NCBI GenBank assembly: GCA_035758565.1
Contig: DASTXL010000002.1
Span: 275,118-339,117, forward strand
Direction of reading: 5' to 3'
DNA: 64,000 bases
Source of the DNA: Candidatus Saccharimonadales bacterium
Lineage (GTDB): Bacteria > Patescibacteriota > Saccharimonadia > Saccharimonadales > UBA10212
Positions 25,193 to 51,553 of this stretch are shown here, piece by piece. Numbering within the stretch: position 1 is the first letter of the stretch; each line of letters begins with the position of its first letter. The notes under the pieces are model-generated. The model saw only the letters and a program-made list of their open reading frames with translations, was not told the DNA's origin and made no database searches. The position numbers and the translations under genes were made by a program.

Positions 25193-25717
25193 CTAAGCGG
25201 TTACAGCCGCCGCCGAAACTTCTTCTGCCCCAGCCTTAATGTCGGTGTCCTGTACCAAAATGTAATTATCAGTGACTTCAATAATCTGAGTCCGGTCAAT
25301 TATGGCCGTAGCATTATTGGTCAAAACTTTCACCAGCGATTTGCCCACGTACAGTTTCTGCACAAACATTCCCTCGTTGTAGCTAAAATCTTCTACATGG
25401 CCAATCTTGGTGCGCTTGGTTCGGACCAGCTTGCCCATGAGTTTAAAATCAAGGTCTATAATTTCTCTGTGGCGAACTAAATCTTCTACCGATGACAAAG
25501 CCTCTTCGTTATTTACGGTTATAGCGTCAATTAATAAATCTCGGACATCGTCAGCTAGTAGAACTTGCAGTTCTTCCTCCCCGCCAACACGGCACCACCA
25601 GCCAATAATCTTTAGATTATGAGGGTTAATTATGGGCTCTGTGGCCGTAGCAATCTTGCCCCCTACACGTAGGCTGACTACTGGTTGATTAAATAAAGAT
25701 GCGCTTAATCGCAACAT
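25193..25717 (-). CDS. PRC-barrel domain protein
   Basis: Two PRC-barrel-like halves (NQPVVSL..G.KIATATEPIINPHNLKIIGW). Confidence 0.45.
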   Translation of the reverse strand: MLRLSASLFNQPVVSLRVGGKIATATEPIINPHNLKIIGWWCRVGGEEELQVLLADDVRDLLIDAITVNNEEALSSVEDLVRHREIIDLDFKLMGKLVRTKRTKIGHVEDFSYNEGMFVQKLYVGKSLVKVLTNNATAIIDRTQIIEVTDNYILVQDTDIKAGAEEVSAAAVTA

Positions 25718-25901
25718 GATTTAAGTATAGCGCTTTAAGAGGTTTTTGATAGTTAGCCAAACCGCTCATGCTATTGATATTTTAAGGTGATTATGTTAAA
25801 ATATAGTTGGTTTCAGGCAAGTGTTATTGTTTAAAGCAAGAGCAAGTCTGGGATAGAACCCTGATCACCTTAGCGGTGGTCGCGAATTCGAGGAGGAATC
25901 C

Positions 25902-26372
25902 GTGAGTTATTCGCACGAGCTGCTGACGGCCGTGTACCTGACCCTGTTGGTTGGGGCGGTTTGCAACACCTGTTACGTCGTCGAGAAGGTACGCGACACG
26001 CTGCTCAGCCACTGGAGCACGGGCCTGCAGAAGGCGGCCCGGCTGCTCGGCCAGCTGTCGTTCTGGTTCGTGCTCTCGCCCACCTGCGTGGCTGCCGGCC
26101 TGATGGCCGGCAAGGAGATCTCGCCGAACCAGTTCCCGAACACGACGTTCTGGAACAGCTACCCCACCTGGCACAGCCTGCGGGCCATGCTCGGTGGGTC
26201 GCTCCTGCTGGCCACGCTGGCGATGTGCATCGCGCTCATCTTGCGCGAGTACGTCAACTCGCCGCGCTACAACGCGCTCATGGCGGAGCGACGCCGGAAG
26301 CGCCAGCAGCGGGAGCGGTTCTCGTCCCGCGTCGAGCTGCCCGCCGACTTCATCCCCGGCTACCCGGCCTAG
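25902..26372 (+). CDS. hypothetical membrane protein encoded in a high-GC island
   Basis: GTG start 5 nt after AGGAGG. Nearly all codons end in G/C, 3-4 hydrophobic segments, GC-rich hairpin after the stop. Confidence 0.6.
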   Translation: MSYSHELLTAVYLTLLVGAVCNTCYVVEKVRDTLLSHWSTGLQKAARLLGQLSFWFVLSPTCVAAGLMAGKEISPNQFPNTTFWNSYPTWHSLRAMLGGSLLLATLAMCIALILREYVNSPRYNALMAERRRKRQQRERFSSRVELPADFIPGYPA

Positions 26373-26540
26373 GTCCTCCCCCGCACACGCCCAGCATGTC
26401 TCTGGCGAGACATGGTGCAGCGGCTCGTTCACTCGAGCCGTTCTGGGCCCTTCCCAAGGTTCATCAAGTTTTGGTGGCTCTTGGAAAGTAAACTGCTACT
26501 GCTTGCTCTTTATGGTTCGCTTAAATACAATCACTCACAA

Positions 26541-27866
26541 ATGAAGCGTCCGAGGATATTCTCTTGGGTGGTAGCGGTGGTTTTATTAAGTTCGGTGCTT
26601 ATACCTGGCAACGCATTTGCCACTGGATCGTCCCTATCAATACGAGAGATAAAGATAACCGACGATGAGTTTGTAATTATACAGAACACCGGTAACAACG
26701 ATATTGATCACCTAAGTGATTATTGGTTAGGGTACGTAGGCAGCGATACAAGCATGGCACCCCCTGTTCAGGATTTGCCGGACTACCGGCTACCATCAGG
26801 CGGGGTAGTTTTACTTAGCGGCGGCGGGACAGTTAATACCTGCGATGCCGACATAGTAAGCGACCTGTCGCCGTCACTCAGTGACAGCAAAGGCACACTC
26901 AACCTTTGGGAGCAAACGTCGAGCGGCTTTAGCCTACTATCGGGCAACCAAGCCCAAGTACGCTGGAATAAATCCACCTCCTCTGACGTTAACCTTAGTG
27001 AAGAGACCAGCCAATATGCTAACCCGGTGTGGTTTTACGATACTTCAAGCGGCTGGCTCTTGACTGATATGTCTGGTTGCACACTGACTACTTACAACGG
27101 CTCAACCAGTACGACTGCGGCAGTTTGGCCAGAGAACGATTCCAGCCCGCCGGCTATTATTGAAAGCGTTGCTGAAGGTCAGGGTTTGGTTGGCTTACCG
27201 GCTGCTGATATTGGCTTAAAAGCTCCGCAAATCAGTGAGCTTTTGCCCAACCCATCTGGCAGTGGCACAGATGATACGGATGAGTTTATAGAACTTTACA
27301 ATCCTAACGATACTGCCTTCGATCTTTCGGGTTTTGCCTTAGAGACTGGTTTGACCACCAAACATAAATATTCTTTTGAAGACAGCACGCTTTTGCCAGC
27401 TAAAAGCTTCACGGCGTTTTACTCAGCCGATACTGGGCTAACGTTGAGCAATACTTCAAGCCAGGCGATTTTGCTAGATCCTCTGGGCACTACGATTAGT
27501 CAATCCGACGCCTATAGCTCTGCTAAAGACGGCATGTCTTGGGCGCTGGCTAACGGCAAATGGTATTGGACTAACGCGCCAACGCCTGGTGCTACTAATG
27601 TAGTCAACCAAGCGTCGCCTGATTCATCTAAGGCTAACAAATCTTCGGCTCCAACTGTAAAAGGACTTTCCACGGGTAGTTCAAACTCAGCGCCTAATAG
27701 CTTTAGTAACACTACAATCGTGTCTACGCCCATACACGCTTGGACGCTTGCTGGGGTTGGTGCTGCCGCGTTACTATATGCTGGCTATGAGTACCGTAAT
27801 GACTTGGCAAACAACCTCTACCGCGTCCGACGATACATCGCGGCTCGGCGAGCTGCTAGGAAATAA
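26541..27866 (+). CDS. secreted, C-terminally membrane-anchored protein with a lamin-tail-domain (LTD) motif
   Basis: Signal peptide MKRPRIFSWVVAVVLLSSVLIPGNAFA; LTD motif ISELLPNPSGSGTDDTDEFIELYNPND; C-terminal TM plus basic tail. Confidence 0.6.
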   Translation: MKRPRIFSWVVAVVLLSSVLIPGNAFATGSSLSIREIKITDDEFVIIQNTGNNDIDHLSDYWLGYVGSDTSMAPPVQDLPDYRLPSGGVVLLSGGGTVNTCDADIVSDLSPSLSDSKGTLNLWEQTSSGFSLLSGNQAQVRWNKSTSSDVNLSEETSQYANPVWFYDTSSGWLLTDMSGCTLTTYNGSTSTTAAVWPENDSSPPAIIESVAEGQGLVGLPAADIGLKAPQISELLPNPSGSGTDDTDEFIELYNPNDTAFDLSGFALETGLTTKHKYSFEDSTLLPAKSFTAFYSADTGLTLSNTSSQAILLDPLGTTISQSDAYSSAKDGMSWALANGKWYWTNAPTPGATNVVNQASPDSSKANKSSAPTVKGLSTGSSNSAPNSFSNTTIVSTPIHAWTLAGVGAAALLYAGYEYRNDLANNLYRVRRYIAARRAARK

Positions 27867-48940: not shown

Positions 48941-49597
48941 CTTGGCAAAAAAGTCGTAGCTATGAAGCTCCTTAACGCCAGTTGAGCGCACGGAAACCCC
49001 GTTCGCAGCTCCTTAAGGAATCGGACTAAAAAATTCAGCGCGGGGGAGGTAGCTTTGCGGGCAGTTAAGAGCCGTGGAGCCTAACGTCGTAGACACCAAC
49101 CACACGCTGATGTAGCAGAGTAGGGCTCGCAACCCGGATCTCTGCTCCTCGGAGGGGCGACAGCTAACTTTCTGACTTTCTACGCCCGTCAGGGACAGGA
49201 GAATGATCAGTAGTGGGCTCGGTCGCCCCTCCAAAGGCTTAAAATTCCTTCCGGTAGGGGGTGAACTGACGGCATCAGTGACCCCCGAAAGACCCTGTCG
49301 GAGGGGATCTTCCTCGATGGGGCGGTTCTGTGGCGTTCCCTCCAGAGCTGCTGCTTGAAGGGACATCGAGGAAGCGCCGCGGTTCGTGGACGGGAGCTGA
49401 CGCCACTCTCGTCCGCGACCGCGGTCTATAATTCGAGCTAGAGCTCGAGCAAGACCGCAGGTCGGCTGTAGCGAAAGCGACAGGGGATCAGACCCCTCCA
49501 CCTGCTTCGTCAACGCTCGCCGGCCTGCGGCTCCAACCGTGAAACTAAAGTCCGATTCCTTTCTTCACACCACCCTATCAGGGTGGATCTTTGATTT
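48941..49597. ncRNA. candidate large structured noncoding RNA (or a long structured leader of murD); identity unknown
   Basis: GC-rich with no credible ORF and many local hairpins. 13-bp long-range helix (49015-49027 with 49549-49561). Extended -10 TGcTATACT at 48926-48934 and a + strand hairpin plus U-rich tract at 49570-49597. Confidence 0.35.
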
Positions 49598-49680
49598 ATA
49601 GACCGCTTAACGCTTGTGCTTCATACTTAAAAGTGGTGAAAACTATTGACATATTTTAGTGCTTGTGGTAAAGTATTGAC

Positions 49681-49866
49681 ATCCTCGCTTCTTAGGCGAT
49701 GAGGTGGAAATCTCTACGAGGCAATAAGGGCAACTTTAGAGCTTCGGAAGCCTTCGGCGGGTGAGGTGCAAGCTTAACAAATCGGATCATGAGAGTTCAG
49801 CTTGAACTCTGCCGCCAAGTTAATAAAAACGTTCAAGAGCTTATATATCGTAAGCTCCGTTTTTGT
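49681..49866 (+). ncRNA. candidate small RNA (promoter-to-terminator unit of ~185 nt)
   Basis: TTGACA-17-TAAAGT at 49646-49674; intrinsic terminator gagcttatatatcgtaagctc plus T-run at 49837-49865; no ORF. Confidence 0.3.
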
Positions 49867-50051
49867 ATTTGGCGGTTGTTTAGCTAGAGCTAACTTTTCG
49901 CATACATTTTAAGGGTCACCAAGTAGAGCTAGCGTTACAGACGATAAATAATTGTCGTTTGTAGCGCTAGCTCTCCACTCCGGAGCGCAAGCAAAAGAGT
50001 GCGGTGACCGGGCCCGGTCACCGCACTGTTCATTCGACCAGGAGGTGCACG

Positions 50052-51287
50052 ATGGGCCACAAGTTGCACAGCATCAAGAGGTCCGCGGCCATCACCCTGG
50101 CCGTCGCGATCCTCGCCGTTCTCGGAGCCGTCGTCGCCATCGAGGCGCCGACGTCGCACGCTGCGACGGCCTCGGCCGCCCCGGCGTCCGCTCAGCACGT
50201 GATGGACTCCACGTGTCCGGTGCAGTTCGCTGCGCCGATCTACACCTGCGAGATCCAGCCGGTCGGGGTCAAGACGAACAAGTCGTCGAGCTCGACCTCC
50301 CACGTGCACGTCACGACGAAGAAGAACACCACCGTGACTCTCACGATGGTGAAGCGGTACGAGAAGATCAAGCACGTCCGCGTCGCCATCAACGGCGGCG
50401 CTCCCGTCAAGACGGGCTGCGTCGACCCGACGAAGATCAAGTCGTGGAACTTCCACGACGGCGACTCCTTCTACAACGCCGACAAGTTCCACCGCGAGCT
50501 CCCGGACACCTGGGAGAGCGGCTGGGAGATCTGCGGCGCCCATCCCGTGCGCAACTGGCACGGGCACCCCGGCCTGTACGAGGTGGGCAAGAAGAAAAAC
50601 TGCCGCAACACGCCGATCGCCATTCCGATCCAGGAGCAGGAGATCGCCGTGCCGCAGAAGGTCGTCGAGATGACGAAGACGCAGTTCGTGTCGAACTTCG
50701 ACCGCGTCGTCAAGAAGTCATCGACCTCGACCAGCACGAAGGACGTCGAGTACTACTGCCGCACCGCCGGGTACAACCCCGGCGTGGTGAACGGTCGCGA
50801 GGTCTGCTACCACGTGGTGCAGATCCCGGTCGGCACCACGCCGACGACTCCGACGGGCACGATCGTGTGCAGCAACATCGGCAACAACAACGGTGGCAAC
50901 TGCAACACGAACACGACGACGACCGTGGTGACCACCACCACGACAACGCCGTCGCAGTCGCCGAGCTGCACGCTCAACCTGGCCGAGAGCAAGGGCAACC
51001 AGAACGCTCAGGCCTCGGTCAACACGACCGGCGGTTCGGCCACCTTCGTCCAGTTCACCTGGGGCGACGGGGCGACGGACCAGGGTTCGTTCGTGTCGGC
51101 GACGCACACCTACGCGACGCCGGCTCCGGCTCCCGCCGGGACGTACGTGACCTACACGATCACCGCTCGCGCGGTGATCGGCGGCAACTGGTTCGACTGC
51201 GGTCACCGCGACTACAAGGTCGCGGCACCGCCGACGAACCCGACGGGGACCAACCCCGACGGGCCTCCCGGTCTGCCGAACGGCTAG
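50052..51287 (+). CDS. secreted Cys-rich protein with a C-terminal PKD-like domain, encoded in a high-GC island
   Basis: AGGAGG RBS 6 nt upstream. Signal peptide ending SHA|AT; FTWGDGATD...HTYATP...GTYVTYTITAR PKD-like motif. About 9 in 10 codons end in G/C. Confidence 0.65.
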   Translation: MGHKLHSIKRSAAITLAVAILAVLGAVVAIEAPTSHAATASAAPASAQHVMDSTCPVQFAAPIYTCEIQPVGVKTNKSSSSTSHVHVTTKKNTTVTLTMVKRYEKIKHVRVAINGGAPVKTGCVDPTKIKSWNFHDGDSFYNADKFHRELPDTWESGWEICGAHPVRNWHGHPGLYEVGKKKNCRNTPIAIPIQEQEIAVPQKVVEMTKTQFVSNFDRVVKKSSTSTSTKDVEYYCRTAGYNPGVVNGREVCYHVVQIPVGTTPTTPTGTIVCSNIGNNNGGNCNTNTTTTVVTTTTTTPSQSPSCTLNLAESKGNQNAQASVNTTGGSATFVQFTWGDGATDQGSFVSATHTYATPAPAPAGTYVTYTITARAVIGGNWFDCGHRDYKVAAPPTNPTGTNPDGPPGLPNG

Positions 51288-51553
51288 TCAACCAGGCAAC
51301 GGCTGGGGCGGGCGTGAAGCCCGCCCCAGCTCGCGCCGATTGTGTGTGAAGGGTAATAAGCTCGCTGAACCAAAGCGAGTGGGGTGGAGCGCGGCTTTTT
51401 AAGTCCTGCGTTCACCCCTCTCTCAACCCAAAATGGATTCTCATGATCCGATTGTTTCTTAGGCTCGCCTCGGGCGAACATTAAAAATTTGAAGCGAACG
51501 GTTAGTCAAAAAATATTACAGATTTAATATGAAATTTAAGAAAGGATACAACT

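Follow-up and report, generated by a model that had tools for sequence, protein, structure and literature searches.

Chromosomal hotspots of horizontal gene transfer (HGT) and genomic islets lie between conserved core genes and lack mobility genes. Integrons are built from the recombinase IntI, the attI site, the promoter Pc and cassettes that pair an open reading frame (ORF) with attC. Orphan immunity genes of polymorphic toxins (CdiI and related proteins) are small, extremely diverse, often orphan, strain-variable and atypical in composition, and class I holins combine small size with about three hydrophobic helices and a C-terminal tail that is basic and highly charged. Here we compare these systems with a locus of the Saccharibacteria, obligate epibionts with tiny genomes for which the determinants of host range and of survival on toxin-producing Actinobacteria are largely unknown. 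The locus lies in a 64,000-nucleotide stretch of contig DASTXL010000002.1 from Candidatus Saccharimonadales bacterium (the window), in which a GC-rich segment, island 1 (approximately 25850-26450), carries the single gene isl1 between the genes of a PRC-barrel protein and a lamin-tail-domain (LTD) protein. The original prediction saw in this segment the isolated acquisition of a membrane-protein gene from a high-GC donor, perhaps an actinobacterial host. Our analysis indicates, with moderate confidence, that island 1 is cargo exchanged in an accessory-gene slot, which varies between strains and is located between the PRC-barrel and LTD genes in a clade of soil and rhizosphere Saccharimonadales.

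We file the slot as an accessory-gene hotspot without mobility genes. As in HGT hotspots, the flanking core genes are constant across many genomes, the content between them varies, no integrase is present and the flanks show signs of recombination. The same conserved genes were found to enclose different accessory genes, and replacement through recombination in the conserved flanks was evident in comparisons of related loci, which are designated here by L numbers (L038 with L048, the junctions of L001, L037 and L048, and L104 with L001). The slot is unusual for a hotspot in several respects. Its cargo consists of just one or two short genes, most forward-oriented cargo stands behind a common resident promoter and leader, and replacement among L001, L037 and L048 is confined to the coding sequence (CDS). 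Furthermore, the cargo is uniformly rich in GC at third codon positions (GC3), is orphan and, when forward-oriented, ends exclusively in TAG.

The Patescibacteria, reduced-genome bacteria of the Candidate Phyla Radiation (CPR), carry islands and singly transferred genes whose donors often go unrecovered, and a survey of their transfers placed most of them within Patescibacteria and found them not to be recent (PMC12455944). Unlike the transfers in that survey, the slot cargo is compositionally very far from its recipient and its insertion site is recurrent.

Composition and anatomy of island 1

The composition of the window changes abruptly at island 1. Measured in 200-nt windows, GC climbs from 0.38-0.46 to 0.64-0.70 across positions ~25850-26450 and then falls back, so that the segment has 65% GC compared to 47.8% for the entire window. 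Sliding-window GC thus recovered the jump that had been claimed for 25850-26470, with a slightly earlier end. In 500-nt windows (mean 0.478, standard deviation 0.045) only two sites of the 64 kb exceed the mean by more than three standard deviations, island 1 and a second island at ~49900-51400 that carries the gene isl2. The ORF at 25902-26372 (+ strand) has GC contents of 0.59, 0.47 and 0.94 at first, second and third codon positions (GC1, GC2 and GC3), while GC3 of host ORFs in the window ranges from 0.42 to 0.57. This period-3 pattern singles out the + frame as coding among the open frames, and the GC3 value upholds the predicted prevalence of G/C-ending codons, with ACG, TCG, CCG, CTG and GCC preferred. 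The rise in GC begins just past the conserved AGTCTGGGATAG of the leader, at ~25850, and the fall coincides with a low-GC tail at 26448-26488. Deviant composition with sharp boundaries, one of the hallmarks of horizontal acquisition, is therefore present. The expectation of a Saccharibacteria-type organism was also correct, since the NCBI entry for the identical protein is VFT49_04205, on a 355,811-bp contig of a metagenome-assembled genome (MAG) named Candidatus Saccharimonadales bacterium.

The foreign-looking segment is a complete unit of Shine-Dalgarno (SD) sequence, CDS and GC-rich hairpins (~25860-26447) that stands behind an AT-rich resident promoter and leader. The left flank is the conserved PRC-barrel gene 'p174' (25193..25717, - strand; 174 aa), which is divergent from the island; the PRC domain (PF05239) was matched by 8 of 20 members of the p174 family, with a best E-value of 6e-6. 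A sigma-70-type promoter, TTGATA-17-TAAAAT with an extended -10 TG (25774..25802, +), agrees with the consensus at 10 of 12 positions. It lies within AT-rich native DNA ~100 nt upstream of the island gene and can be aligned with the promoters that precede cargo in L029, L001, L037, L048, L064, L065 and L068. The leader follows (25803..25901, +), and its first ~55 nt are low in GC and alignable to relatives (..TTC..AGTCTGGGATAG). A leader hairpin of 7 bp is predicted at 25863-25881, though the fold of the leader is no better than that of shuffled sequences (z = -0.95). The ribosome-binding site and GTG start of the original prediction were both located, the SD sequence GAGGAGG at 25890-25896 (+) and the GTG at 25902, 5 nt further on. 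The isl1 CDS (25902..26372, +) ends in TAG, encodes 156 aa and is an ORFan.

Past the stop codon are two GC-rich hairpins. The first (26395-26414, +) is the expected catgtctc/tggc/gagacatg, the second (26419-26442, +) has a stem of 9 bp, and an outer stem (26372-26376 / 26445-26449) encloses both. The fold of this 81-nt 3' region is significantly stable (z = -3.3; 0 of 200 shuffles equally stable), and no T-run or canonical terminator was found at the hairpins, which are likely to mark the transcript end or to act as a stabiliser. The low-GC 3' tail of the slot (CCCTTCCCAAGGTTCATCAAGTTTTGG...; 26448..26488, +) resembles the tails that follow cargo hairpins in L041, L064 and L065, and a model of this tail matched the window with an nhmmer E-value of 8e-4, the window being one of its five training sequences. 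Next comes GCTACTGCTTGC (26495..26506, +), which we read as the -35 region of a promoter of the LTD gene; many relatives without an insert (e.g., L013, L040, L044, L054, L055, L066 and L099) have the same motif ~30 nt from the start of p174. In this reading the LTD gene would keep its own promoter motif downstream of the cargo. The right flank is the LTD gene itself (26541..27866, +), which encodes a secreted, membrane-anchored protein (PF00932, E = 8e-18). The flanking genes are thus divergent, as had been described, with the PRC-barrel gene on the - strand and the LTD gene on the + strand.

The imperfect inverted repeat that was proposed to bracket the island does not define its boundaries. 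It reduces to a 9-nt exact pair (25838-25846 / 26502-26510) that is one of 27 comparable pairs within 900 bp, which is chance level, and its right arm overlaps GCTACTGCTTGC, the promoter motif of the LTD gene. Other candidate boundaries fared no better. A 10-nt direct repeat, TAGCGGTGGT (25871 / 26572), lies off the GC borders and is probably due to chance, about 0.4 such pairs being expected by our estimate. A 3' motif, CTCAACC(C/A)AAA, considered as an att-like site, is unique in the window, yet it is present elsewhere in related loci and remains a weak candidate. A conserved leader hairpin was likewise rejected as a structured RNA, because it is predicted in every module but beats shuffled sequences only in isl2 and L064. 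Searches of the leader and untranslated regions (UTRs) against Rfam gave sub-threshold matches alone.

The isl1 product is probably a small integral membrane protein with a cytoplasmic basic C-terminal tail. The claimed length of 156 aa and the basic tail, which follows the hydrophobic segments, were confirmed. Of the claimed three to four hydrophobic segments, two (9-27 and 96-114) pass a strict hydropathy cut-off and a third (~48-69) is seen by eye only. The AF2 model is all-helical and of low confidence (pLDDT 60). No match was found in Pfam, NCBIfam, PADLOC or PHROGs, in agreement with the earlier statement that isl1 has no recognisable domain. In its small size, its approximately three hydrophobic helices and its basic tail isl1 resembles class I holins; it differs in being longer (156 aa), in lacking an endolysin or phage context and in having no PHROGs match. 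A holin or prophage remnant was consequently rejected, given that PHROGs and IMG/VR were empty, that the phage tblastn search returned one match at E = 0.6 and that the flanks are core genes.

The isl1 frame stays open beyond its TAG and is in frame with the LTD ORF (497 codons to the next stop). The first cargo gene of L037 is likewise in frame with the second, no such extension occurs in other cargos, and the arrangement is probably a coincidence. TAG read-through as a sensor was discarded, since extensions range from 0 to 497 codons without pattern.

Occupancy of the slot in related genomes

Probing with the p174 protein yielded 28 loci among GTDB species representatives and 71 among JGI metagenomes, the closest of them at 67% identity. 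Most related loci keep the gene order recA-recX-p174 | LTD-tsaE-tsaB, and the insert-free state is the commonest. The gap between p174 and LTD is usually 60-210 bp in relatives and 823 bp in the window, which makes island 1 an insertion relative to the common state. None of the 99 related loci encodes a homologue of isl1 or isl2. Island 1 is therefore absent from the orthologous site of its relatives, a second hallmark of horizontal acquisition.

The site is nevertheless far from empty elsewhere. About 10 of 71 distinct evaluable loci are occupied, scattered within one sub-clade, with cargo placed at p174 | LTD or at p174 | tsaE. The sister of the window in the p174 tree, L029 (locus GC 0.46), holds a gene for a 179-aa exported or anchored protein (GC3 0.84). 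L001, which equals L031 and L032, encodes a 164-aa soluble protein (GC3 0.79). Two membrane proteins are encoded in L037, which equals L038 (135 and 120 aa; GC3 0.80 and 0.88), and again in L048 (128 and 102 aa; GC3 0.84 and 0.83), and single ones in L064 (145 aa with a basic tail; GC3 0.84) and L065 (129 aa; GC3 0.82). L041 carries genes for 237 and 184 aa (GC3 0.69 and 0.75). The cargo is inverted in L062 (GC3 0.78) and in L047 (GC3 below 0.7; patch GC 0.56-0.61, locus GC 0.48), and in L068 it is truncated by the contig end, leaving GC3 undefined. Across 598 kb of related loci, all genuine ORFs with GC3 at least 0.27 above locus GC sit in the slot, and the few others that were flagged look out-of-frame or antisense (GC2 > GC1). 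Cargo genes mostly encode small membrane or secreted proteins. Judged by eye, five of the cargo proteins are small, show some three hydrophobic segments and end in a charged tail; the strict cut-off retains three segments in just three of them.

The cargo proteins are mostly unrelated to each other. Exceptions are the L037 135-aa and L048 128-aa proteins (31% identity, E = 6e-10) and the L001 164-aa and L041 184-aa proteins (28%, E = 0.003). Distant homology among the small membrane cargo proteins was sought and not established (hhalign probability 0.6%; isl1 with L064, E = 0.15). The L001 cargo has a sub-threshold match to CdiI_3 (E = 0.003; 17.9 bits with a cut-off of 28).

While the coding sequences vary, the signals around them are resident. 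Most forward-oriented occupied loci, including the window, have a common promoter and a leader of ~100 nt, at the end of which is an SD context of the type CGAAC..AGGAG. An nhmmer model of the leader (of which the window is part) matched the slot only; it also matched upstream of the 184-aa gene of L041 and weakly upstream of the L062 cargo. In L001, L037 and L048 the flanks are near-identical up to the SD sequence and again from the stop codon onward, and the CDSs between them differ. Similarly, L038 and L048 have flanks of 94% and 90% identity, and their blastn alignment is interrupted at the cargo. These comparisons indicate that close relatives vary essentially in the CDS or CDSs and that expression signals are resident.

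There are signs of intense recombination at this site. L104 (1-1860) and L001 (3701-6600) have no differences over 1,509 nt that span p174, leader, cargo and 3' UTR, and diverge by 18.7% from the LTD start onward. This step is a sharp recombination breakpoint in the aligned sequences. Its position at the LTD start suggests that the N-terminal part of the LTD protein is itself exchanged and constitutes a hypervariable allele. Contig names place L037 and L048 in one metagenome and L032, L038 and L064 in another, so different alleles exist within the same sample. At least 11 contigs, which derive from several samples and sources (ENA, JGI and Logan), carry L001-type cargo, always in the order p174 | cargo | LTD, and at least 4 contigs carry L041-type cargo.

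Three further observations concern the contents of the slot. First, its short hairpins are far better conserved than the genes beside them: the leader hairpins of L001 (5690-5800) and L041 (3004-3102) are identical at 19 of 20 nt next to CDSs of 28% identity, and the 3' hairpins of L064 (570-650) and the L001 clade have identical arms of 14 nt each next to unrelated cargo. Second, the 120-aa membrane protein of L037 (2329-2688, - strand) matches phrog_1298, 'minor tail protein' (E = 2.4e-5), a lead that is unconfirmed because tblastn against 50,697 phages gave no support. Third, in L019 (2523-4399), which has no LTD gene, two genes with ordinary GC (119 and 438 aa) occupy the site, which here is flanked by tsaE and the PRC-barrel gene, indicating that the slot also takes cargo that is not GC-rich.

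Origin of the cargo and competing explanations

The GC3 of 0.94, the GC-rich UTR hairpins and the sharp borders of island 1 point to evolution in a genome of ~70% GC. It is reasonably probable that the cargo DNA evolved in genomes of roughly 65-72% GC. Both islands prefer the codons ACG, TCG, CCG, CTG and GCC, which suggests a similar source and pinpoints no phylum. Chances appear about even that cargo would enter by natural transformation and recombination and that strains would then trade alleles through homologous recombination in their conserved flanks. Saccharibacteria have been shown to undergo natural transformation that depends on ComEC (PMC10633639). We regard a donor among actinobacterial hosts as conceivable and lean against it.

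Several results weigh against the proposed acquisition of GC-rich cargo by the slot, beginning with the failure to find a source. The closest homologues of isl1 were not found in Actinomycetota or in any other high-GC taxon. The gene product matched only itself in 5.8e9 protein clusters and in 1.84e9 representatives, and it had no match in JGI metagenome contigs, IMG/VR or 72,556 plasmids; tblastn against 50,697 phages was empty apart from one match at E = 0.6. The isl2 product also matched only itself in a cluster search, which is less conclusive because it was restricted to 8,000 candidates and was probably swamped by a threonine-rich stretch, and it had no match in a contig scan or among the 50,697 phages and 72,556 plasmids; scans of JGI metagenomes and IMG/VR were empty for the cargo proteins searched. 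A profile of the L001 164-aa and L041 184-aa proteins recovered only itself in the 5.8e9 clusters and nothing in contig scans. Viral contigs yielded nothing for the L029 cargo, and neither phages nor plasmids yielded anything by tblastn for a 1,880-aa concatenate of 12 other cargo proteins. The claim of acquisition from a high-GC donor thus holds as far as composition and absence from the site of most relatives are concerned and lacks a donor, actinobacterial or other, in all collections searched.

The stop codons are a second difficulty. All 12 forward-oriented cargo genes, which represent ~10 independent families, end in TAG, including those of the islands (26370-26372 and 51285-51287) and of L001, L029, L037, L048, L041, L064 and L065. 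Stop counts are TAA 41, TAG 13 and TGA 9 for ORFs of the window (one of the TGA ORFs being a wrong frame in island 2) and TAA 153, TAG 90 and TGA 36 for relatives; at a TAG frequency of ~0.3, ten independent TAGs have p ~6e-6. High-GC bacteria favour TGA, and the frequency of TAG is independent of GC (PMC3549826). An ordinary high-GC donor does not account for TAG-only cargo stops. Reassignment of TGA in the recipient was ruled out, as ~8 host genes in the window end in TGA. Finally, the homologous pairs L001/L041 (28%) and L037/L048 (31%) retain a GC3 of 0.75-0.84 across species, a persistence that is awkward for acquisition followed by amelioration.

What the cargo does can be proposed only tentatively. 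We consider isl1 to be possibly, though rather doubtfully, an envelope factor specific to its strain, with immunity to, or exclusion of, a membrane-acting toxin of hosts or competitors as its most likely role. An envelope role of this kind is favoured because the cargo consists of small membrane and exported or anchored proteins and of a soluble family with the sub-threshold CdiI_3 match. The immunity-type reading also draws on the limits of the foreign segment, which starts just upstream of the SD sequence without a promoter of its own and ends at terminator-like hairpins; such a promoterless unit of SD, CDS and hairpin would fit the promoter-distal immunity gene of a donor toxin-immunity operon. 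Slot genes share with islands of orphan immunity genes their small size, diversity, orphan status and membrane, exported or cytoplasmic products. They differ in that isl1 belongs to no recognised immunity family. Searches of Pfam, NCBIfam and PADLOC found no immunity or toxin domain in isl1, and neither a toxin gene, cognate or otherwise, nor a recombinase lies nearby; this too counts against the proposal.

The slot may further be a dedicated expression site, with a resident promoter, leader, SD context, 3' hairpin and tail, into which whole CDSs of a hidden gene pool of ~65-72% GC would be exchanged. We regard this extension as unlikely. If true, it would imply an unrecognised mechanism of gene capture or cassette exchange, or a systematic flow of host-derived (e.g., immunity) genes into the epibiont, and behind the TAG rule there would be a donor pool, or a filter by selection, still to be understood.

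Among explanations that compete with slot cargo, the strongest is the original one, in which the epibiont received one membrane-protein gene from its actinobacterial host in a single isolated transfer and an imperfect inverted repeat marks the boundaries. We judge it rather improbable. The high GC3 with GC-ending codons throughout, the possession of an SD sequence, a GTG start and hairpins without T-runs, and the absence of the gene from the sister lineage L029 and other relatives are all as expected of such an event, and cultivated Saccharibacteria live on Actinobacteria and are naturally transformable (PMC10633639). Against it stand the lack of a homologue in any taxon searched, the chance-level inverted repeat that overlaps the promoter motif of the LTD gene, TAG-only stops untypical of high-GC bacteria, the occupation of the site by other GC-rich cargo in ~10 lineages and the existence of a second island in the window. 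The idea of an isolated acquisition is therefore only half sustained: the segment is absent from most relatives, but the site is recurrently variable and holds other GC3-rich genes. Likewise, the concern that the same composition might be widespread in the recipient lineage proved partly justified, with unrelated GC3-rich genes in ~10 of 71 related lineages. Occupancy in ~10 of 71 lineages, the common promoter and leader and the TAG stops together indicate the cargo of a recurrent slot instead of an isolated acquisition.

Alternatively, the locus could be native and hypervariable, its genes being long-resident and their GC richness made or kept locally by mutational or conversion bias or by selection. 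This is improbable in our estimation. In its favour, high-GC3 ORFs are confined to the slot in the 598 kb examined, homologous cargo families persist there across species at high GC3, the leader hairpins of L001 and L041 are nearly identical beside diverged CDSs, a TAG stop is universal among forward-oriented cargo, no donor appears among ~15 billion proteins and there are signs of intense recombination at the locus (L038/L048 and L104/L001). What argues against a native origin is that GC1, GC2 and amino-acid usage resemble those of a high-GC genome, that GC richness extends to the untranslated hairpins and has sharp boundaries, and that the recombining flanks are themselves AT-rich. In addition, biased gene conversion is weak in bacteria, and we know of no mechanism that would lift GC3 locally from ~0.5 to 0.94.

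It is very unlikely that a small mobile cassette (integron-like, IS200/MITE-like or another site-specific element) integrates at this fixed site with a passenger gene. The insertion site is indeed recurrent, a promoterless CDS is served by a resident promoter and followed by a hairpin past its stop codon, a common linker (TAGGACGACYTCGA..GGAGG) lies between two otherwise unalignable CDS pairs in L037 and L048, and the L001 clade and L064 have identical 14-nt arms in their 3' hairpins next to unrelated cargo. In its logic the slot parallels integron cassettes: promoterless and mostly orphan ORFs read from a resident promoter beside a divergent gene, a hairpin after the array and strain-variable content. 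However, the divergent gene encodes a PRC-barrel protein and not a tyrosine recombinase, cargos of two genes have no hairpin between the genes, and some cargos are inverted (L062 and L047). No integrase or transposase was found among recA, recX, PRC-barrel, LTD, tsaE and tsaB genes. A direct reading of 26373-26470 revealed neither GTTRRRY nor RYYYAAC core sites of attC, with no AAC-containing inverse core and with GTTCACT and GTTCTGG not fitting GTTRRRY. Identity with an integron fails because the slot has neither IntI nor attC cores. Insertion sequences (IS), miniature inverted-repeat transposable elements (MITE) and transposons were discarded as well, since no significant terminal repeats, target duplications or transposase ORF occur at the locus, and the leader model has no further copies in the window.

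The weakest alternative, an assembly chimera in which a high-GC fragment of another organism was joined into the Saccharimonadales contig, is extremely unlikely: the sequence does come from a MAG built on a short-read metagenome assembly and the exact isl1 protein is absent from the assembly index, but native syntenic DNA surrounds the fragment, its complete gene follows in register a promoter and leader that align with those of other occupied loci and precedes the 3' tail of the slot, the window holds two such islands, and equivalent structures and their junctions recur in relatives in many independent assemblies (at least 11 contigs for one cargo type and at least 4 for another, drawn from different samples and sources).

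The preferred reading of island 1 as slot cargo has implications for the biology of these epibionts. A slot with a resident promoter and GC-rich orphan envelope genes that differ among contigs of 90-94% identity from the same metagenome is a candidate for the place where strains adapt to their hosts or to competitors. The slot is also a small and defined system for the capture and expression of compositionally foreign DNA in a naturally transformable CPR bacterium. The TAG-only stops and the total absence of homologues are puzzling, and both lend themselves to testing in additional genomes.

The second island and neighbouring features

The second high-GC island (49960..51420, +), an outlier in GC and GC3, repeats the layout of island 1. 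A hairpin with a perfect 13-bp stem (49998-50027, +) precedes the SD sequence AGGAGG, and ..TTCGACCAGGAGG.. is followed by an ATG at 50052 (+). The isl2 CDS (50052-51287, +) encodes 411 aa, has a GC3 of 0.93, ends in TAG and is an ORFan; its protein has an N-terminal signal or anchor segment and a threonine-rich linker. Three strong hairpins follow the stop codon (z = -5.2), and CTCAACCCAAA occurs at 51422, just past them.

Two non-coding features were observed upstream of island 2. A ~550-nt GC-rich region (0.57-0.63) at 49012-49562, ~450 nt 5' of the island, is closed by a 13-bp helix and has a minimum free energy z-score of about -7.5 on either strand. It has no coding-like GC periodicity and no Rfam match, and may be an undescribed large structured RNA. 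At 49640-49870, also with no Rfam match, a strong promoter-like TTGACA-17-TAAAGT with TG stands ahead of ~200 nt of non-coding sequence, rich in hairpins and closed by a T-run, an arrangement that may represent a small RNA gene.

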